IMG/VR virus record: IMGVR_UViG_3300043673_000060
Source: an uncultured virus (IMG/VR IMGVR_UViG_3300043673_000060)
Taxonomy: Duplodnaviria; Heunggongvirae; Uroviricota; Caudoviricetes
Length of the DNA stretch: 59,088 nt
Reading direction: 5' to 3' (one strand)
Shown: positions 1,910 through 59,088 of the stretch, piece by piece
Position numbering within the stretch: the stretch's first letter is position 1
Layout of the letters: every line of letters begins with the position of its first letter
Notes under the pieces: model-generated
The model's database searches: none
Told to the model about the DNA's origin: nothing
The model's input: the letters and a program-made list of their open reading frames with translations, nothing else
Made by a program: the position numbers and the translations under genes

Positions 1910-1937
1910 CGCCACGATCCTCTACCGGCGTCGCCTC

Positions 1938-2193
1938 GTCTCCACCGCTTGCCAGGTGGAGCTTCGTTTCACCCACCCTGCTCGGAATCCGCACGCAGGC
2001 ATGGGCCCGGTCTCCACCGCTTGCCATGTGGAGCTTCGTTTCACCCCAGCAGGACCTCGGGATCGACCACCCGAGTCACCTCGTCTCCACCGCTTGCCAT
2101 GTGGAGCTTCGTTTCACCCTCGTCCTTGCCGACGCCGTTGTACGCGATGATGATCTTGTCTCCACCGCTTGCCATGTGGAGCTTCGTTTCACC
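1938..2193 (-). CRISPR. CRISPR array 1 (no adjacent cas gene): 4 repeats of 36 nt, 3 spacers (36, 37, 39 nt)
   Basis: GTCTCCACCGCTTGCCA[G/T]GTGGAGCTTCGTTTCACC at 1938, 2010, 2083 and 2158; the leader copy lies on the right side. Confidence 0.97.
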
Positions 2194-2389
2194 AGGTCCC
2201 GCAGGACCCCAATCATTACGCGCCATTGCTGGCCATTGCGCGAGCGGTCGCCATTCTCGCCAACTTCTCGTCGCGCATTCGCCTCGCGCGCTCCCACCTG
2301 CTTTCCTTCTTGTCTCCGTTTTCGTTCGCGTTTTCGTCCTCGCGAGCGCCTGCCAGCACTTTCGCATCGCCCGGCCGCTCGCGCCAGCG
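2194..2389 (-). repeat. Copy of the CRISPR leader / 3' end of the cas12m-like gene
   Basis: Near-identical reverse complement of ~20409-20605; 2194-2280 is identical to 59002-59088. Confidence 0.93.
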
Positions 2390-2396
2390 CGTTGCC

Positions 2397-2621
2397 CTAT
2401 TCCTGTTCGCCTTCGCTCGGGTCGGGCGTTTCCGCTTCCTCGATCAGCTCGTCGGTGATGGCGCTCATCTCGCTGGCCAGCGCCGCGATGGCGTCCGCGA
2501 TGACGCCGTGCTCGGAGTCCGCGTCGTTGAGGCCGACGATCTTGACGTCCGCGTCCTCTTCGCCGCGTGCGATGAGCACGACGACGCCGATGAAACCGTC
2601 CGGGACTGTGACCGTTGTCAT
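2397..2621 (-). CDS. Small acidic hypothetical protein
   Basis: 74-aa ORF ending 7 nt before the leader copy. Confidence 0.55.
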   Translation of the reverse strand: MTTVTVPDGFIGVVVLIARGEEDADVKIVGLNDADSEHGVIADAIAALASEMSAITDELIEEAETPDPSEGEQE

Positions 2622-2708
2622 GTGGGACCTCGCTGGGGTGAAGGCCGCAAACTAGACCGACGACGACGGCGTGTCGAGGGCCTGTACGCGCGCAGCAAAC
2701 TTCCTGGG

Positions 2709-10762: not shown

Positions 10763-10927
10763 TACGTGCCTGGTCTCCACCGCTTGCCAGGTGGAGCTTC
10801 GTTTCGCAGAAGCAAGTCACGCAGAAACTCCCAATCGGACAGTAGCTTTGGCTGGCCGCTCCGGTACAGCGTGTCGCTGACTTTGCGAATCACGAGGCCA
10901 GAGTCGAGAACGAACGCGTCAGGCATG
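10763..10927 (-). pseudogene. Truncated ORF with a tyrosine/dual-specificity phosphatase-like N-terminus, running into the solitary repeat
   Basis: My translation: MPDAFVLDSGLVIRKVSDTLYRSGQPKLLSDWEFLRDLLL, then repeat-encoded residues and a stop. LYRSGQP is typical of DSP/PTP N-termini. Confidence 0.45.
10773..10808 (-). CRISPR. Solitary CRISPR repeat
   Basis: GTCTCCACCGCTTGCCAGGTGGAGCTTCGTTTC matches 33 contiguous nt of the array-2 repeat; no neighbouring repeat. Confidence 0.9.
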
Positions 10928-17850: not shown

Positions 17851-18489
17851 CTAGGTAATCGTGTCCACGTCCACGTCATCCGCAATGACCGCCAGGACGA
17901 GTTCCTCGTGCAGCGAGATGTACTTGACCTTGTCGATCGTCACGACGCGCGCGCCGCGGTCCTTGTACAGGACGCGATCCCCGACTTTGGCGTCGGGCAT
18001 AGGCCACCGCGTTCCGTCCGCGCACGGCATGCCTGGACCGACGCGCACGACGCGCCCCGCGTACATGTGACTGTCGTCCTTGGCGGTCTTCGGGATGATG
18101 AGCAGTCCGCTACGTGTACGGCGATCGTCCGGCGCCTTGTCGGGCAGAATCAGGAAGCGGTCGGACAGGATCCGGTCCGGCACGCCGCCCGCGGAGCCCG
18201 CGTCATGCACGCCGATGATGTCCTCGTCGTTGATGACCAGCTGCTCCTCGCCCTCGACGACGATGTCGACGCCGCTCCACGGCCCGAACAGGACGCGCTC
18301 ACCCACCTGCACGTCGACGCTGGAGCGCCCGCCGTGCTTGATCTTGCGCCCGTTGCCCACCGCGCGCACGTCGCCATCGAGGCGCTTTTCCTGGGCGGAG
18401 TCGGGGATGTGCAGCAGGCCGCTGTCTGTCTTGTCCTTGGGCCTGGTTCGCTTGACGACAACTCGGTTGAGGAGGGGGCGCAGGTGCAT
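17851..18489 (-). CDS. groES: Co-chaperonin with two tandem GroES (Cpn10) domains
   Basis: LRPLLNRVVVK..TDSGLLHIPDSAQEK..G.V.AVG.G..V.VGERVLF, followed by a second similar domain. Confidence 0.9.
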   Translation of the reverse strand: MHLRPLLNRVVVKRTRPKDKTDSGLLHIPDSAQEKRLDGDVRAVGNGRKIKHGGRSSVDVQVGERVLFGPWSGVDIVVEGEEQLVINDEDIIGVHDAGSAGGVPDRILSDRFLILPDKAPDDRRTRSGLLIIPKTAKDDSHMYAGRVVRVGPGMPCADGTRWPMPDAKVGDRVLYKDRGARVVTIDKVKYISLHEELVLAVIADDVDVDTIT

Positions 18490-18631
18490 GGCTGCCTACG
18501 GGTAGCGCCATGACGGCGCGAGCGCAAGACCTGTTGTTAGCTTTCATCGTTCCCGTTGTCTCTCGATGCTAAAGTGCCGGTCTCTGCCGACTGTCGCGTC
18601 GAGTGTGCGAACCTGCGGGACTGCGAGGGCG

Positions 18632-18660
18632 TTGACAGGTGCCCATGGTGTCACTAGTTT
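18632..18660 (+). promoter_or_regulatory. Sigma70-type promoter of the cas12m-like gene, with a TGACA-N11-TGTCA inverted repeat
   Basis: TTGACA-N17-TAGTTT, ending 8 nt before the ATG at 18669. Confidence 0.7.
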
Positions 18661-18668
18661 GGCGATCG

Positions 18669-20582
18669 ATGAAACTCGTCTACAAGTTCGCCGCCGCCGC
18701 GCCACACGAAAATTCGGATCTCGTCGCCGCACAAATGCGGCTGGGGCACAAGTACCGCAACACGCTCACGGAGATCGAGCGCGGCAGGCGCGCCGCCGTG
18801 CGCGCCGCCGAGACGGAGATCGGCGACATGTCGGCTGCACGGAAGGCGTTGTCGGCCGCCGTGGCCGAGGTGGATCTGGCCATGGGCGCCATCGCGCGCC
18901 ACCGCGCTCACTCGCGCAAGCGCGACGAGCCGGCCGAGATGAGGCAAGCGTTCAAGACCGCCAAGGCGGCGAAGAAAGCGGCTGCTGACGCCTTCCGGGA
19001 AGTGCGAGACAAGCTACGTCTCGATCCGGGGCTCATCGACGCCAAGGATGCCATCGGCGAGCGCGCCAACGAACTGAGAGCCTCCGCGCGCGGCTACAGC
19101 GGCCTGGGCGAGCATGGCCCCCATTACGGCGCGTGGGGCACGTACTTGCTCGTCGAAAAAGCAGCCGGCGACTCCTTCAAGTCGATCGCGCTGTACGACA
19201 AGCGATCCGAGCCGGCCGATCCGAGCTTCGCGCGGTGGGTGGGCGAGTCGTCTGTCGGCGTTCAGCTGCAGGGCGGCCTCGCTGTCGCCGACGCCGTCAA
19301 CGGTGCCGACACGCAGGTCCGTATCACGCTGCCGGACGCGCGCGCATGGGACCGCCGTGGCCGCACGCACCGCGAATGCGAGCAGTTTGCGCGCCAAGCG
19401 CAGCTGTCCATCCGCATCGGGAGCGATGGACGCAGGCCCGTCTGGGCCAGTTGGCGCGTGGACATGCACCGACCGTTGCCAGACGGGGCCGTCCTCAAGG
19501 AAGTGGCCGTGCATTGCCGTAAGGAGGGGCCGTTTTCCAAGTGGTTCGCGACGTTCACGCTGGACGCGCCCGCAAAGGTGCGCGGCGGCTCGTGCGCAGG
19601 CTCCGGCACTGTCGCCGTGGACGTGGGATGGCGCGTCATGGGCGACGAGCTGCGGGTTGCTGGGTGGCAGGACGCGACCGGCGCCCGCGGGGAACTGCGT
19701 CTGTCCGCGAAAGACCTGGCCCTACTGCGCGCACCTGAAGCGCTGCGCTCGCAGCGCGACCTGCGATTCGACGTGGCTCGCGGGCGAGTCAACGCGTGGT
19801 TGCGAGCCAACAGCACGATTCTGCCCGACTGGCTCCGCCTCGCGTCCGCAAACATACACGCGTGGCGGGCAGAGTCGCGACTCGCGGGCCTGCACGGCCG
19901 GTGGCGCGGCGCCCGATTCGGTGGCGACGTCGAGATATACGACGTGCTCAGCAACTGGGCGTCGCGCGCCAGGCACGACTGGGCTGTCGAGAGTCAGGCG
20001 CGCGGACAGGCGCTGCGGCGTCGCCGCGAAAAGTACCGCGTATGGGCGGCGCAGCTGGCGACCCGGTACGACACGATTGTGATCGAGAAATTCGACAAAC
20101 GTAAGGTGGCCAAGAGGCCCGACACGGACGCGCAGTGCGCGCAGACGGCCGAGCAGATCGCCCGCGACGAGTATGCGCGTGCGCACCGCGTCCTGGCCTC
20201 CACGAGCGAGCTTTGCGGCTGCCTGGTGGATGCCGGGCGCAGTCGACAGAGCGCCGTGCTGGCCATGCCGTGCGCCGACACAACGAGAACATGTCCCACG
20301 TGCGGACTGGTCGAGTCGCGCGACGCGGCGGCGAGCGTGTCGCTCACGTGCGACTGCGGCGCCGCATGGGACCAGGACGTGGACGGGGCGCCGTCCATCC
20401 TGCTTGCACGCTGGCGCGAGCGGCCGGGCGATGCGCAAGTGCTGGCAGGCGCTCGCGAGGACGAAAACGCGAACGAAAACGGAGACAAGAAGGAAAGCAG
20501 GTGGGAGCGCGCGAGTCGAATGCGCGACGAGAAGTTGGCGAGAATGGCGACCGCTCGCGCAATGGCCAGCAATGGCGCGTAA
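18669..20582 (+). CDS. cas12m: Compact type V CRISPR effector, Cas12m (V-M / V-U1)-like, TnpB-derived, 637 aa
   Basis: RuvC-I VAVDVGWR (D318), RuvC-II IVIEKFD (E473), zinc finger CPTC..CDC, RuvC-III WDQD (D570). N-terminal QMRLGHKYRN, VGVQLQ and MHRPLP segments recall Cas12m. A CRISPR array starts 23 nt after the stop. Confidence 0.82.
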   Translation: MKLVYKFAAAAPHENSDLVAAQMRLGHKYRNTLTEIERGRRAAVRAAETEIGDMSAARKALSAAVAEVDLAMGAIARHRAHSRKRDEPAEMRQAFKTAKAAKKAAADAFREVRDKLRLDPGLIDAKDAIGERANELRASARGYSGLGEHGPHYGAWGTYLLVEKAAGDSFKSIALYDKRSEPADPSFARWVGESSVGVQLQGGLAVADAVNGADTQVRITLPDARAWDRRGRTHRECEQFARQAQLSIRIGSDGRRPVWASWRVDMHRPLPDGAVLKEVAVHCRKEGPFSKWFATFTLDAPAKVRGGSCAGSGTVAVDVGWRVMGDELRVAGWQDATGARGELRLSAKDLALLRAPEALRSQRDLRFDVARGRVNAWLRANSTILPDWLRLASANIHAWRAESRLAGLHGRWRGARFGGDVEIYDVLSNWASRARHDWAVESQARGQALRRRREKYRVWAAQLATRYDTIVIEKFDKRKVAKRPDTDAQCAQTAEQIARDEYARAHRVLASTSELCGCLVDAGRSRQSAVLAMPCADTTRTCPTCGLVESRDAAASVSLTCDCGAAWDQDVDGAPSILLARWRERPGDAQVLAGAREDENANENGDKKESRWERASRMRDEKLARMATARAMASNGA

Positions 20583-20605
20583 TGATTAGTGTCCTACGGG
20601 GACCT
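20409..20605 (+). promoter_or_regulatory. Probable CRISPR leader overlapping the effector 3' end
   Basis: CGCGAGCG (20415-22) and CGCTCGCG (20450-57) form an inverted pair, with a direct CGCTCGCG copy at 20552-59. The same segment precedes the other two arrays. Confidence 0.7.
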
Positions 20606-21201
20606 GGTGAAACGAAGCTCCACCTGGCAAGCGGTGGAGACCTCTCCCACTCGCCCTCTGCGCGCACCCCTGCGACGGGTGAAACGAAGCTCCACCTGGC
20701 AAGCGGTGGAGACGTACGGCAAGGCGCCGCGTCCTCGGCGGGCGACGGCTCGGTGAAACGAAGCTCCACCTGGCAAGCGGTGGAGACAAAGTGCCCGTGT
20801 GGTGTTACGACAACCTGGTCGCGGGTGAAACGAAGCTCCACCTGGCAAGCGGTGGAGACATGGCGTCGATGACCGCCGCTTCGGGGTCGGGAAAGGGTGA
20901 AACGAAGCTCCACCTGGCAAGCGGTGGAGACAAGATCGGCCGGACCAACGACCCGTGGCGACGGGCGGGGGCCTAGGTGAAACGAAGCTCCACCTGGCAA
21001 GCGGTGGAGACGGAGCCGCCGCCTCGAAGTGGATCGGCTCAGTCATGGGTGAAACGAAGCTCCACCCGGCAAGCGGTGGAGACCGTGACGAACGAGCGCG
21101 CCCGTGCCCGGTGCGGCGCCGGTGAAACGAAGCTCCACCTGGCAAGCGGTGGAGACGAGGCGACGGGTGAAACGAAGCTCCACCTGGCAAGCGGTGGAGA
21201 C
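20606..21201 (+). CRISPR. CRISPR array 2 (effector-adjacent): 9 repeats, 8 spacers (36, 38, 36, 36, 44, 36, 37, 9 nt)
   Basis: GGTGAAACGAAGCTCCACCTGGCAAGCGGTGGAGAC at 20606, 20678, 20752, 20824, 20896, 20976, 21048 (one variant base), 21121 and 21166; stem CTCCACC/GGTGGAG. Confidence 0.98.
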
Positions 21202-21286
21202 CGAAAAGCCCCCGAGAACGGAGCGGCGCCCCGCCACTTGACGAATGACCCAAACGTCACCATACTGATTGGTGAGGATGCCACCC

Positions 21287-21766
21287 ATGAAGCTCTGTCT
21301 TCTCTCCGTTTTTCTCCTGGTCGGTTGCGGTGGCGCCCCGTTCTCGGAGGGCCTTGTCGACCCCGTCGAGGCCTCGGCCGAGGCCGGCGACGAGGTTGGC
21401 GACCCGCAACCGGACGCGGGACGGGACAGCGCCCCGGAAGCCGGGGGAGGGGATTCTGCGAGCTGGGTGGCAGAAGCGGGGGAGGCGGGGTACGAGGGCG
21501 GGACCGTGGACAGTGGGGTCGACACGGGGGCGGTGGAGGCGGGGGTGGTATGTCCGGGGTATTTGCCGTGCAACGTGAATCGGAACTGGCCGGGCGCATT
21601 TTGCCTCGTTCGCACGGGCGGCGGCGACGACGACTTCACGGCGCCTGCCGCGTGCAACAGCTGCGGCACGTACACGTGCGCCTGCATCCTCGCGAACTCA
21701 ACATTCGCAGTCGGGTGCGCCTGTTCGCTTAGTAGCGACGGTGCCGCTATGGTCGTCTGCCCGTAA
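21287..21766 (+). CDS. Cys-rich lipoprotein
   Basis: MKLCLLSVFLLVGC lipobox, acidic linker, Cys-rich C-terminus; promoter TTGACG-N17-CATACT upstream. Confidence 0.75.
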   Translation: MKLCLLSVFLLVGCGGAPFSEGLVDPVEASAEAGDEVGDPQPDAGRDSAPEAGGGDSASWVAEAGEAGYEGGTVDSGVDTGAVEAGVVCPGYLPCNVNRNWPGAFCLVRTGGGDDDFTAPAACNSCGTYTCACILANSTFAVGCACSLSSDGAAMVVCP

Positions 21767-21861
21767 TCGTCGCGCTTCCGTTCGCCGTCCGCCCGCGCTA
21801 GGTGGAACGTTATGGGTGAGAAGACCGGGATCGCATGCGTGGTTCCCGCACTGGAGATCGG

Positions 21862-23910
21862 ATGAGCCAGTTCATCGACGGCCCGATGGGCCGTTTCGAG
21901 ATTCCGGACGCCCCCGAAGCCACGCGGCGCTGCTGCGAGGCGATTGCGCGCGAGGTCTGGGGCGGCGAGTACGCGCACGCCTCTCTACCTCACGCCCAAA
22001 TCGGTCGCGTGCTCGACATCGGGGCCGGCTGGGGCGCGTTCACTGTGTGGGCGCAGCGTGAATGGCCCGAGGCCGTCATCGAGTGCTACGAGCCGCATGC
22101 CGGGGCGTGCGCGTACCTGCGACGCAACGCCCCGAACGCCGTCGTGCACGAGACGGCCGTCACCGTTCAGCCCACGGCGACGCTTTCGGTGGGCGCCCAC
22201 GACACTCTCGACAACTGGGGAGCCCGTACCATCCAAGGTGTAGCGGGCGGCGAAGCCGTCGCCGTGTTGCATCCGCGCGATCTGCCGCCGTGCGACATCC
22301 TGAAATGCGACGCCGAGGGCGTGGAGCCCGAGGTGCTCGAAAGCTACCCGCACCTGGCCGGCGTGAAGGCCATCCTGTACGAGTTTCACAACGCCGTGCA
22401 CCGCGCGGGCCTTGCCGAGTTTTGCAGGCTTGCGGGGTTCCGGTGCCTGCGGGAGGTGCAGGTTGGCGCGCACAGCGCACTCCTCGTGTGGGGCCCCAGC
22501 CTCTGGGTCCGCGGCGTCGCGCGGCCGTCGATCCCGAAGACCATTCACCAGGTCTGGATTGGGCCGAAGCCTCCGCCCACGGCAATGATGGACACGTGGA
22601 AACGGATGCATCCCGACTGGCAGTACAAGCTCTGGACAGATGCGCGCGGCTGGATGAACCAGGACAAGATCGATTCCATGCCGGAACTCAACGGCAAAGC
22701 AGATCTGATACGCTACGAGATACTCGCGCGCTACGGAGGCGTGGCCCTGGATGCCGACAGCATCTGCGTGCGAAAGCTCGACGACGAACTGCTGGAACAC
22801 GAAGCGTTCGCGTGCTTCGAGAACGAGATCGCCCGTCCGGGACTCATCGCCTGCGGCGCGATGGGCGGAATTCCGGGCGCGCGCGTCTGGCGGGCCTGCG
22901 TGGAGGCAGGCAAGACCGCCGACACGACGCAGCCTGCGTGGCGTGGCGTCGGACCAGGCCTGCTCACGCGTGTGGCCGCCGCGATGGGGCCTGACGACCT
23001 CCACGTATTTCCAGCCCGGATGTTCATCCCGAAGCACTTCACGGGCATCGACGCGCCAGGCGAAGCGCCGATCTACGCCACGCAGCACTGGGGAAGCACC
23101 GTCGGTTACGACAAGCTGGTCGCTGCGCCGACGGACGGGCCCCTGGTGAGCATCGTCATCCCCTGTTACGGGCAGTCGCGCTGGCTTGGCGACGCGATCC
23201 GTAGCGCGAAGGCTCAGACCTACAAGAACACCGAGATCATCGTGGTCGCCGGCGACGACGAGTCAGCTGCCGTGGCGGAGCGGCACAAGGTCAAGGTCGT
23301 GCGCGACGGTGGCAATGGCCTCGCAAACGCCCGTAACGTGGGGATCGGCTACGCCGCTGGCGCATTCATCCTGCCGCTCGACGCCGACGACATGCTCGCG
23401 CCCAATTTTCTCGCCAAGACGGTGCCACTTGCCAACGACACCACCATCGTGGGCACGTTCATGCAGGAATTTGGCGAGCGACACCGCGCCATCGGTCTTC
23501 CGCGCTACGATCGGGCCCGTCTTCTCGACGAAAACCCGACGTTCGTGTGTTCCTTGTTCAGTAAGAAACTCTGGCAGGATGTCGGCGGCTACAATGTGGC
23601 GCCGTTCGGGTACGAAGACTGGTCTTTCTGGGTGTCCTGCTGCGAGCGCGGAGCCACGATCGTGCACGTCGAGGAACCGCTTTTTCGGTACCGTACGCAC
23701 GGCGGCCAAGACTCACTGTTCTGCCTGAAGCACGACGCCGTGCTGCGGGCCATGATTCGCCTGCTGCACCCCGATCTCGCCGGCGACAGCGCCCAGGGCG
23801 ACCTCGCCGTCGTACGCGCGATGCCCGAGGAGGTGCTAGCTCGCATGAAGCGCCGTCAGACCTGGTTTCCAGACAACGAAGCGTTACGTACGTGGCTGCA
23901 GCAAGGGTAA
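21862..23910 (+). CDS. FkbM-type methyltransferase + DXD (GT32-like) glycosyltransferase + GT2 fusion
   Basis: VLDIGAGWG and LKCDAEGVE; IPKTIHQVW..ADLIRYEILARYGGVALDAD; VSIVIPCY..GLANARN..PLDADD..EDW. Confidence 0.88.
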   Translation: MSQFIDGPMGRFEIPDAPEATRRCCEAIAREVWGGEYAHASLPHAQIGRVLDIGAGWGAFTVWAQREWPEAVIECYEPHAGACAYLRRNAPNAVVHETAVTVQPTATLSVGAHDTLDNWGARTIQGVAGGEAVAVLHPRDLPPCDILKCDAEGVEPEVLESYPHLAGVKAILYEFHNAVHRAGLAEFCRLAGFRCLREVQVGAHSALLVWGPSLWVRGVARPSIPKTIHQVWIGPKPPPTAMMDTWKRMHPDWQYKLWTDARGWMNQDKIDSMPELNGKADLIRYEILARYGGVALDADSICVRKLDDELLEHEAFACFENEIARPGLIACGAMGGIPGARVWRACVEAGKTADTTQPAWRGVGPGLLTRVAAAMGPDDLHVFPARMFIPKHFTGIDAPGEAPIYATQHWGSTVGYDKLVAAPTDGPLVSIVIPCYGQSRWLGDAIRSAKAQTYKNTEIIVVAGDDESAAVAERHKVKVVRDGGNGLANARNVGIGYAAGAFILPLDADDMLAPNFLAKTVPLANDTTIVGTFMQEFGERHRAIGLPRYDRARLLDENPTFVCSLFSKKLWQDVGGYNVAPFGYEDWSFWVSCCERGATIVHVEEPLFRYRTHGGQDSLFCLKHDAVLRAMIRLLHPDLAGDSAQGDLAVVRAMPEEVLARMKRRQTWFPDNEALRTWLQQG

Positions 23911-34315: not shown

Positions 34316-34343
34316 GTCTCCCCCGCTTGCCTGGTGGAGCTTC
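34316..34343 (-). CRISPR. Degenerate solitary CRISPR repeat in the 5' UTR of the basic-protein/capsid operon
   Basis: GTCTCCCCCGCTTGCCTGGTGGAGCTTC matches the repeat at 26/28 nt and ends 25 nt before the ATG at 34290. Confidence 0.8.
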
Positions 34344-58199: not shown

Positions 58200-58261
58200 G
58201 CGTCACCCCTTCACCATCGTTGTGCTGAGACACAAGCTCGCGCTTGCAGGCTCAGAGCCGG

Positions 58262-58297
58262 GTCTCCACCGCTTGCCATGTGGAGCTTCGTTTCGCC
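58262..58297 (-). CRISPR. Solitary repeat with its own promoter, in the 5' leader of the SSAP-like operon
   Basis: 35/36 match to the repeat; 100 nt from array 3; 62 nt upstream of the ATG at 58199. Confidence 0.9.
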
Positions 58298-58299
58298 CC

Positions 58300-58328
58300 A
58301 AACTAACAACCAGTCGCGCGCCCGTCAA
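58300..58328 (-). promoter_or_regulatory. Sigma70-type promoter firing into the solitary repeat
   Basis: Minus strand TTGACG-N17-TAGTTT, ending 2 nt before the repeat; same -10 as the cas promoter. Confidence 0.7.
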
Positions 58329-58397
58329 GCGCTCAGTTCGCGCCCGCCGCCATCGTCCGTGCGGGCCGCGGATGGCATGCGGGGTCGCGCATGCATC

Positions 58398-59001
58398 GTC
58401 TCCACCGCTTGCCATGTGGAGCTTTCGTTTCACCTTGTCGACGCAGCGCCACGCGCAGGTCTCCACCGCTTGCCATGTGGAGCTTCGTTTCACCAAGCGG
58501 TGGAGACAAGCAGACGGCGCTCCTCCTGGTTGTCTCCACCGCTTGCCATGTGGAGCTTCGTTTCACCGCGCGCGCGTTGGGACGCCCACCGCGCACCTCC
58601 ACGTCTCCACCGCTTGCCATGTGGAGCTTCGTTTCACCCTGCCAGCGCAGATCGCTCGTGGTCTTGTGATCGGGTCTCCACCGCTTGCCATGTGGAGCTT
58701 CGTTTCACCCTACACGACCACCTCGTGACGGCAACGCGCCCGCGCGTCGTCTCCACCGCTTGCCATGTGGAGCTTCGTTTCACCATGCCGCGCCGAGCGG
58801 GTTCGCAGCCTTCCTGAAGTGTCTCCACCGCTTGCCATGTGGAGCTTCGTTTCACCGCCAGACCGACGAGGACGAGCGGGCATCGCGAGTGAGTCTCCAC
58901 CGCTTGCCATGTGGAGCTTCGTTTCACCGGGTCTCCATCGCCGACGCGCAAGAGGCGCAGCCCGGGTCTCCACCGCTTGCCATGTGGAGCTTCGTTTCAC
59001 C
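58398..59001 (-). CRISPR. CRISPR array 3: 9 repeats, 8 spacers (24-39 nt)
   Basis: Repeats at 58398 (37-nt variant), 58459, 58532, 58603, 58674, 58749, 58821, 58893 and 58966. Confidence 0.98.
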
Positions 59002-59088
59002 AGGTCCCGCAGGACCCCAATCATTACGCGCCATTGCTGGCCATTGCGCGAGCGGTCGCCATTCTCGCCAACTTCTCGTCGCGCATTC
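59002..59088 (-). repeat. Leader / effector 3'-end copy, cut by the window edge
   Basis: Identical to 2194-2280. Confidence 0.9.

Follow-up and report, generated by a model that had tools for sequence, protein, structure and literature searches.

A module at the 3' end of cas12m is present three times in a viral contig

The DNA analysed in this study (the window) is a stretch of 59,088 nucleotides (nt) with 66.8% G+C, and is part of a 121-kb contig from an uncultured virus (IMG/VR record IMGVR_UViG_3300043673_000060). It carries a gene, cas12m, whose 3' end is followed directly by a CRISPR array. The subject of this report is a module of approximately 195 nt that comprises the last 57 codons of cas12m plus the 23-nt gap before the first repeat, and that is found again in front of two further arrays. 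We propose that this module is probably a CRISPR leader that is also part of the effector coding sequence, and that its motifs point to the type I-G adaptation machinery. The relevant features of the window are listed below.

18669..20582, plus strand: cas12m, predicted type V-M effector; the frame is open from GTG 18639, and the database protein P0002 (637 amino acids) begins at ATG 18669
20409..20605, plus strand: leader module, the last 57 cas12m codons and the 23-nt gap, delimited by the copy boundary, the type I-G leader model and codon conservation
20415..20457, plus strand: block I of the module, with motif A CGCGAGCG (20415-22) and motif B CGCTCGCG (20450-57), 35 nt apart
20550..20605, plus strand: block II of the module, with motif C ACCGCTCGCG (20550-59), whose CTCG core lies at -52 relative to the first repeat
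20606..21201, plus strand: CRISPR array 2, nine repeats of 36 nt, CACCTGG variant
21157..21165, plus strand: 9-nt 'spacer' GAGGCGACG in array 2, identical to the first 9 nt past the last repeat of array 1 (1929-1937, minus strand)
2194..2389, minus strand: orphan leader copy before array 1, supported by blastn, alignment and a bridging contig
1938..2193, minus strand: CRISPR array 1, four repeats: three leader-proximal ones of the CACATGG variant and a distal one of the CACCTGG variant
59002..59088, minus strand: third leader copy, with 87 nt visible before the window end cuts it, supported by the match and by three-fold read depth
58398..59001, minus strand: CRISPR array 3, nine repeats, CACATGG variant, the last one degenerate

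The open reading frame (ORF) at 18669(18639)-20582 is assigned by sequence comparison to Cas12m, the type V-M effector. Its product matches the Cas12m chain 23vw_A (1.8e-50) and the Cas12m2 chain 8hhl_A (2.9e-20) when compared with PDB chains by phmmer, is matched weakly by the Pfam family Cas12f1-like_TNB, and has 261 homologues that were found in our searches. According to the available portions of published work, characterised Cas12m members bind DNA without cleaving it. The gene ends with TAA at 20580-82, and the first repeat begins at 20606, leaving the gap of 23 nt. In all close relatives, the position of this TAA is occupied by a final GAA (Glu) codon, and the TGA stop used by these relatives directly follows the TAA in the window, at 20583-85; the TAA is present in all three copies of the module. 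A megablast search with positions 18000-23000 against phage and plasmid collections yielded no match.

By blastn, the module at 20409-20605 (plus strand) is 96.95% identical to 2389-2194 (minus strand) over 197 nt and 95.45% identical to 59088-59002 (minus strand) over the visible 88 nt; between the two orphan copies there is no difference across the 87 visible nt. An earlier note on this DNA had described a copy of the last 57 codons and the gap before array 1 and, as far as visible, before array 3, together with an inverted motif pair and a further direct motif copy nearer the repeat. These observations are reproduced here: the third copy matches over 87-88 nt, motifs A and B form the inverted pair, and CGCTCGCG recurs at 20552-59. 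At all three arrays the module adjoins the first repeat directly and lies on the transcribed strand (20605/20606, plus; 2194/2193, minus; 59002/59001, minus). The orphan copy at 2194..2389 (minus strand) begins 7 nt past the TAG stop of an unrelated 84-amino-acid ORF (2397-2651, minus strand).

The motif cores are CGAG at 20417 (A), CTCG at 20452 (B) and CTCG at 20554 (C), with successive spacings of 35 and 102 nt and then 52 nt to the repeat. Block II also holds an AA at -35/-34 (20571-72), the stop codons and a small GTCC/GGAC palindrome just 5' of the repeat. All 23 repeat copies in the window were found, with 0 expected by chance, and a search for the exact repeat pattern in viral contigs gave no match. 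The 9-nt GAGGCGACG is the trailer end common to arrays 1 and 2.

Independent public contigs were consistent with this arrangement. Contigs from a soil run break at 2360 and 20428, which are the module edges, and read depth in this run is 51 at 2363 compared with approximately 17 in the flanks, as would be produced by three copies. In addition, a 151-nt contig of a second study spans the orphan junction (2297-2447). Therefore, the arrangement is not an artefact of assembly.

The module DNA is constrained both as protein and as nucleic acid

In this Cas12m clade, the effector ORF continues through the leader and stops some 20 nt short of the first repeat, so that a single stretch of DNA has two readings, one as the Cas12m C-terminal tail and the other as a leader. 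The tail, previously described as low in complexity, is not so: its protein sequence is conserved in 20 homologues with identities as low as 43%. Synonymous-codon identity, computed among identical residues in eight close cas12m relatives, is 0.663 in the last 57 codons (0.436 expected) and 0.492 in the rest of the gene (0.437 expected), and these last 57 codons rank first among 675 sliding windows. The excess at synonymous sites, which the earlier note had named as a check, begins at the 5' edge of the module: conservation steps up at codons 585-593, with the copy boundary at codon 591.

The codons of block I are invariant in the eight relatives, with Ala always encoded by the rare GCT; among the codons of the tail that never vary is GCT-CGC, which occurs twice. 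At other conserved Arg residues, midway along the tail, the codons swap between the AGR and CGN families. The invariant codons and the switching of Arg codons indicate that nucleotide and protein constraints both act on the module. A whole CRISPR leader overprinted by an effector coding sequence is a rare arrangement.

Motif C holds a nearly constant position across the Cas12m family

Loci of Cas12m relatives were fetched (47 viral and 69 metagenome), and 42 of these were kept for analysis together with the window. Near-identical contigs (L004, L025, L029, L032, L037, L045, L066, L067 and L070) were dropped, as were L014, L033, L040 and L046, in which the array start could not be set, and loci without a detected array. 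The CTCG core of motif C, with the consensus rACCGCTCGCAAA, lies at -53 to -50 in 41 of the 43 Cas12m loci and at -52/-51 in 39, where the chance of any CTCG in a 20-nt interval is approximately 0.12. Its spacing to the leader-repeat junction holds to within 1 nt in either direction across 24-100% protein identity. The ORF overlies motif C in 27 of the 41 tabulated loci (stop-to-repeat gap of at most 41 nt), and the position of the motif is maintained in coding as well as in non-coding stretches (the latter in L008, L012, L023, L028, L031, L041, L043 and L077). In the window, the array of 36-nt repeats lies directly downstream of cas12m in the same orientation, and across 41 loci the repeats show a 3' 6-bp stem with compensatory changes (RNAalifold).

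Two other explanations for motif C were set aside. It was considered as a general phage signal, but ACCGCTCGCR occurs four times in the window (the three leaders plus one) against 1.55 expected; in three complete phages, scattered matches to a looser pattern number 2-10 per genome, counts that stand without a chance expectation. A degenerate 'repeat 0' or a pairing between leader and repeat was also considered by eye, and was dropped because the motif is constant while the repeat sequences vary.

The module resembles the leaders of type I-G CRISPR arrays

A covariance model of the V-M leader and first repeat was run on 151 genomes from the order of G005, a metagenome-assembled genome (MAG) that bears Cas12m. 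The model matched arrays other than V-M that lie right after genes for a Cas4/Cas1 fusion and Cas2, in loci that include Cas3 and Cas_GSU0053 (Pfam, tblastn). This gene set we take to be type I-G. The I-G leaders, which are from Myxococcota, carry CTCG at -52/-51, GCAAG 15-19 nt later and block I approximately 100 nt upstream. In L175/L178, for example, the leader is non-coding, starts approximately 12 nt past the cas2 stop, and has a block I of CGAG, approximately 35 nt and CTCG.

A Cas4/1 protein search of 401 genomes of the phylum was then evaluated, and this yielded 30 loci. The CTCG core is present at -54 to -49 in all 13 fusion-type arrays and in 9 of 12 split-type arrays of the I-G family; the three split-type misses comprise one locus that is no CRISPR array and two with variant cores. 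The core was found in none of 13 cases next to Cas1 genes that are more distant and have other repeat families. In 20 of 22 I-G-family leaders, B precedes C by 85-115 nt and A precedes B by 28-42 nt; the blocks stand at slightly different distances in the remaining two. The window leader has this same form, with a ACCGCTCGCAA-like motif C, a core at -52, an AA (20571-72) in the zone 15-19 nt after the core, 35 nt between A and B and 102 nt between B and C.

A profile hidden Markov model (HMM) was built from the 22 I-G-family leaders alone, with repeats excluded, and was used in an nhmmer search of 2.04 Mb of Cas12m loci and phage genomes. This search gave 30 matches at E<=0.01, all 30 of which are at V-M leaders. 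The comparison with type I leaders that the earlier note had named as a check therefore favours its proposal of a host-compatible leader: motif order and spacing match those of I-G leaders, and a model made only from I-G leaders matches the module from end to end. From these alignments, the module is classified as a complete bipartite CRISPR leader of approximately 195 nt belonging to the type I-G family.

The window leader is similar to the I-G leaders L178 (G105), L179 (G045), L172 and L176 in length (approximately 195-210 nt), in the inverted A/B pair and in its spacings. I-G arrays (formerly I-U) and the window arrays also share 36-nt repeats and a period of 71-76 nt, and V-M spacers are 35-39 nt long, as in I-G arrays; the guide given for Cas12m2 in the accessible part of the literature is 20 nt. 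In contrast with I-G loci, the window is without cas1, cas2 and cas4, its repeat is of another family with a Cas12-type 3' stem that ends in GAC, and its leader lies inside an effector coding sequence and is present three times in one phage. Specifically, Cas1, Cas2 and Cas4 were not found by Pfam among 44 window ORFs, and tblastn with I-G Cas4/1 and Cas2 gave no match in the window or in the 116 Cas12m loci.

Leader motifs were also seen beyond these two families. Five I-C-like arrays with repeats ending GGATTGAAAC (L211, L216, L217, L218 and L222) carry GGTTCGCG or ATTCGCG approximately 52-56 nt before the first repeat, in the place that CCGCTCGC holds in I-G and V-M leaders. A related upstream leader motif may thus be common to adaptation modules that contain Cas4. 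In a bacterial genome, an array close to a phage-integrase gene (L168/L180, G119:C574) combines an I-G-type leader motif with yet another repeat family; a scan of 12 ORFs in this 12-kb stretch detected no cas gene.

Orphan leader-array cassettes recur in other phages

When the covariance model was run on 33 viral records, more than one full-length match was obtained in two of them, G028 and G024. G028 has three arrays (13, 9 and 8 repeats), two of which are far from cas12m and hence are orphans. G024 has a leader-bearing array of 14 repeats beside a cas12m and an orphan array of 18 repeats. The homology of these orphan leaders starts a few nt before motif A, approximately 195 nt before the repeat, as it does in the window. 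In G028, block I of orphan A is one base off the copy adjacent to cas12m and that of orphan B differs by a few more (by eye), block II is kept, and the middle is unalignable, with a length that differs by 1 nt. The leader-bearing arrays of G024 are long and uniform, and its leaderless repeat clusters are small and degenerate. These sequences indicate that leader-array cassettes have multiplied in three phage lineages. Secondary arrays of related loci were examined as possible independent orphans and were rejected, as they are continuations of the same array.

The 153-kb phage G024, which is the genome behind L024, has a cas12m at approximately 8.8-10.5 kb. Directly ahead of its array at 59234 there is another cas12m 3' end, recognised by a WDQD motif and the C-terminal region. 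Besides the two long leader-bearing arrays, it contains nine or more degenerate repeat clusters, each small or a single repeat.

Arrays change at the leader end in elements without Cas1

Cas1 was absent from all 37 Cas12m viral records searched, including all 19 that are at least 90% complete. Even so, V-M arrays show turnover at the leader end. L061 and L070 have the leader in common but, of their spacers, just a distal one, and L068 differs from L066 and L067 by one extra leader-proximal spacer. In the window, arrays 1 and 2 have the leader and the trailer 9-mer in common and inner spacers that are all different, the three arrays hold different spacers, and the three leader-nearest repeats of array 1 are a derived variant. 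Spacer targets were sought within the window and related loci, with no significant match.

The module as a probable host-compatible leader

We hypothesize that the module is a dual-coding, host-compatible leader through which the arrays take up spacers via a host I-G Cas4/1-Cas2 integrase supplied in trans, and we assign this reading a probability of roughly 70%. It draws on the observed copies, dual constraint, I-G homology and geometry, recurrence in phages and leader-end turnover. The suggestion in the earlier note of a host-compatible leader is favoured in particular by the I-G order and spacing of the motifs, by the HMM match, by the coincidence of the 5' edge with the onset of synonymous constraint, and by the occurrence of the same edge in two other lineages. 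From these features we infer that an I-G integrase could act on these arrays, and the orphan arrays are presumably transcribed by read-through from the upstream gene.

Several observations weigh against this reading. The HMM match of the window is modest (20410-20601, model positions 8-201, 20 bits, E 4.7e-4), and the two orphan copies of the window are not among the matches at E<=0.01. V-M repeats are unlike I-G repeats beyond the shared 36-nt length, and cross-use of the integrase is therefore presumptive. A Cas1 of any kind is present in one of four Cas12m-bearing MAGs, which are incomplete, and G005, a MAG with a Cas12m locus, gave no match to the Cas4/1 query, although this MAG is also incomplete. 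The Cas1 locus of MAG G007, which has no array nearby, bears on the question in neither direction.

With regard to the copies, the 5' edge of the third one lies beyond the window, and the contig break at 20428 hints at approximately 10 nt more upstream. Other orphan copies were not seen in the 116 related loci (flanks of at most 10 kb) or in three complete phages, each of which has one array. This scarcity of orphans among relatives suggests that export of the cassette is occasional.

Alternative explanations

A further challenge to the leader hypothesis is that the conserved blocks might act in transcription or at the RNA level, as a promoter or in antitermination, processing or loading of precursor CRISPR RNA (pre-crRNA) onto Cas12m, in a manner shared by I-G and V-M arrays. 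Arrays that are not translated must be protected from termination, and boxA is present in some CRISPR leaders, in one case at -58, according to the available text of PMC7862264. Motif C, like the boxA elements quoted there, is short and linear, lies approximately 50-60 nt before the first repeat, and includes GCUC. The A/B inverted pair shows a compensating change in L060 (GCGAAC with GTTCGC) and a G-T wobble in L058, and orphan modules directly follow the stop codons of genes in the same orientation, which would suit read-through transcripts.

However, other findings do not fit this explanation. Pairing through motif C is 0.70 compared with 0.72 for shuffled flanks (n=41, p=0.93), and RNAalifold recovers only the repeat stem from 41 leaders; an RNA hairpin through motif C was rejected on these two results. 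Rfam gave only chance-level matches for the leader. No sigma-70-like site was found in the module, and the sole such site in 20200-21400 lies past the array, at 21238-21266. The motif is not spread through phage genomes, and a spacing to the leader-repeat junction held to within 1 nt is needed neither by a promoter nor by boxA. The possibility of a boxA (NusB/NusE site) was considered because of the GCUC and its position, but was ruled out on the sequence past GCUC, which reads GCAAA by eye rather than the U-run of the BoxA as quoted. Finally, in published Cas12m constructs, as described in the accessible sections of the reports, the CRISPR region was engineered to a minimum, with one spacer between two repeats. 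On balance, we consider a role confined to transcription or RNA to be unlikely.

The orphan copies might instead be what passively remains of cas12m-array duplications after loss of the duplicated genes, in which case the copied tail would have no function. At 97% identity, the copies of the window are young, and no selection is therefore evident from them alone; most of the relatives examined have a single array; and the third copy may reach further into cas12m. Yet in five orphan copies from three independent lineages, the presumed deletion edge lies no more than a few nt from motif A, and the orphan edge coincides with the 5' limit of the I-G leader after cas2 and with the onset of synonymous constraint. 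The G028 orphans are old, with an unalignable middle and a differing repeat 5' end, but they have kept blocks I and II with a length that is off by 1 nt, and orphan arrays have 4 to 18 repeats with their own spacers. The earlier note had itself raised the prospect of a deleted-paralogue remnant devoid of motif conservation, which does not describe these copies because the motifs are conserved across the whole family. Passive descent is thus an improbable account.

Least probable is an omegaRNA-like guide scaffold, or its relic, overlapping the 3' end of the ORF as in TnpB, a suggestion of the earlier note that has in its favour the closeness of Cas12m to TnpB (in the available literature), the start of the guide-RNA locus inside the nuclease ORF in both, and the ORF over motif C in 27 of 41 tabulated loci, but that fails in that no conserved fold, excess pairing or Rfam match was found (RNAalifold gave the repeat stem only), the overlapped DNA is homologous to Cas1-type leaders next to cas2 in I-G loci without TnpB, and the Cas12m-bound RNA in the accessible published work is array crRNA.

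Other repeats and genes in the window

Three single repeats lie outside the arrays. Those at 10773-10808 (minus strand; complete, with two changes) and 34316-34343 (minus strand; 28 nt, partial) are between genes, and the leader motif was not found upstream of either. Upstream of the third, at 58262-58297 (minus strand), a promoter-like TTGACG-N17-TAGTTT stops 2 nt short of the repeat, which is followed by approximately 14 nt and a GC-rich hairpin (58226-58345 in total). This unit may be transcribed on its own as a crRNA-like RNA; matches of 12 nt or longer to its 'guide' were not found elsewhere in the window. Spacer 7 of array 3 (58495-58531, minus strand) ends in 13-16 nt of the reverse complement of the repeat 3' end, which suggests either that it was taken from an array or that a local rearrangement occurred.

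The window looks like part of a large phage. Among the 44 ORFs scanned, 12 have a Pfam match, including Cpn10, RadC, ParB, Fic and several phage families. Just upstream of cas12m is an ORF of 214 amino acids (17851-18495, minus strand) with two Cpn10 (GroES) stretches, which is unusual in a phage.

A proposed route to spacer acquisition and its implications

Returning to the hypothesis of a host-compatible leader, we suggest a layout of block I (inverted A/B), a spacer of approximately 100 nt, block II (motif C at -52) and the first repeat, through which cas12m would have come to be translated in this Cas12m clade. The leader would recruit the host type I-G Cas4/Cas1-Cas2 integrase together with a host factor that folds the leader, and the integrase would insert new spacers at the junction of the leader with the first repeat. 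Because such a leader would be self-contained, copies of the leader-array cassette could be placed downstream of unrelated genes and be transcribed there by read-through. All three arrays would thereby gather spacers of their own for the single Cas12m.

Precedent for acquisition in trans exists, as type IV-A3 plasmid systems acquire spacers through a type I-E adaptation module of the host, according to the available text of Benz et al. (bioRxiv 10.1101/2023.06.23.546257). Like the V-M systems considered here, these plasmid systems are mobile, lack adaptation genes, silence rather than cut, and rely on a resident type I integrase. They differ from the window in that the partner proposed here is I-G rather than I-E, compatibility would come through the leader alone and not the repeat, and acquisition in trans is deduced; the window leader, furthermore, shares its DNA with an ORF and has been exported to additional arrays. 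The Cas12m loci of Mm, Go and Ms (PMC11013384, PMC10442227) and of MV-1 resemble the window, as far as their available descriptions go, in that a compact Cas12m is followed directly by its array, adaptation genes are lacking and the carrier is a mobile element. A leader is not described in the accessible portions of these reports. In the available text of the preprint on the myxophage MV-1 (bioRxiv 10.64898/2026.09.14.751636), host-mediated acquisition was judged unlikely after repeats were compared with a host I-E system; the window leader points to I-G. Our literature searches on Cas12m leaders, pre-crRNA, spacer acquisition and type I-G found no description of a V-M leader.

A broader proposal, which we offer tentatively, is that the V-M family may be built on a borrowed I-G leader. 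The Cas12m tail would then be a translated leader, and the leader of approximately 195 nt plus its array would be a portable acquisition cassette that phages multiply behind unrelated genes.

For the supply of spacers to type V-M systems, which lack adaptation genes, the window and its relatives name the I-G Cas4/1-Cas2 integrase as a candidate partner. They also define an element that can be tested, namely a leader of approximately 195 nt with three motifs at fixed spacing. If the hypothesis is correct, V-M arrays could be loaded by an I-G integrase in the laboratory, which would offer a route to loading compact Cas12m arrays in vivo. If confirmed, it would also predict a link between Cas12m elements and I-G-carrying hosts: phages and plasmids with Cas12m would depend on hosts with I-G Cas4/1-Cas2 for the renewal of their spacers, and their spread would be tied to that system.

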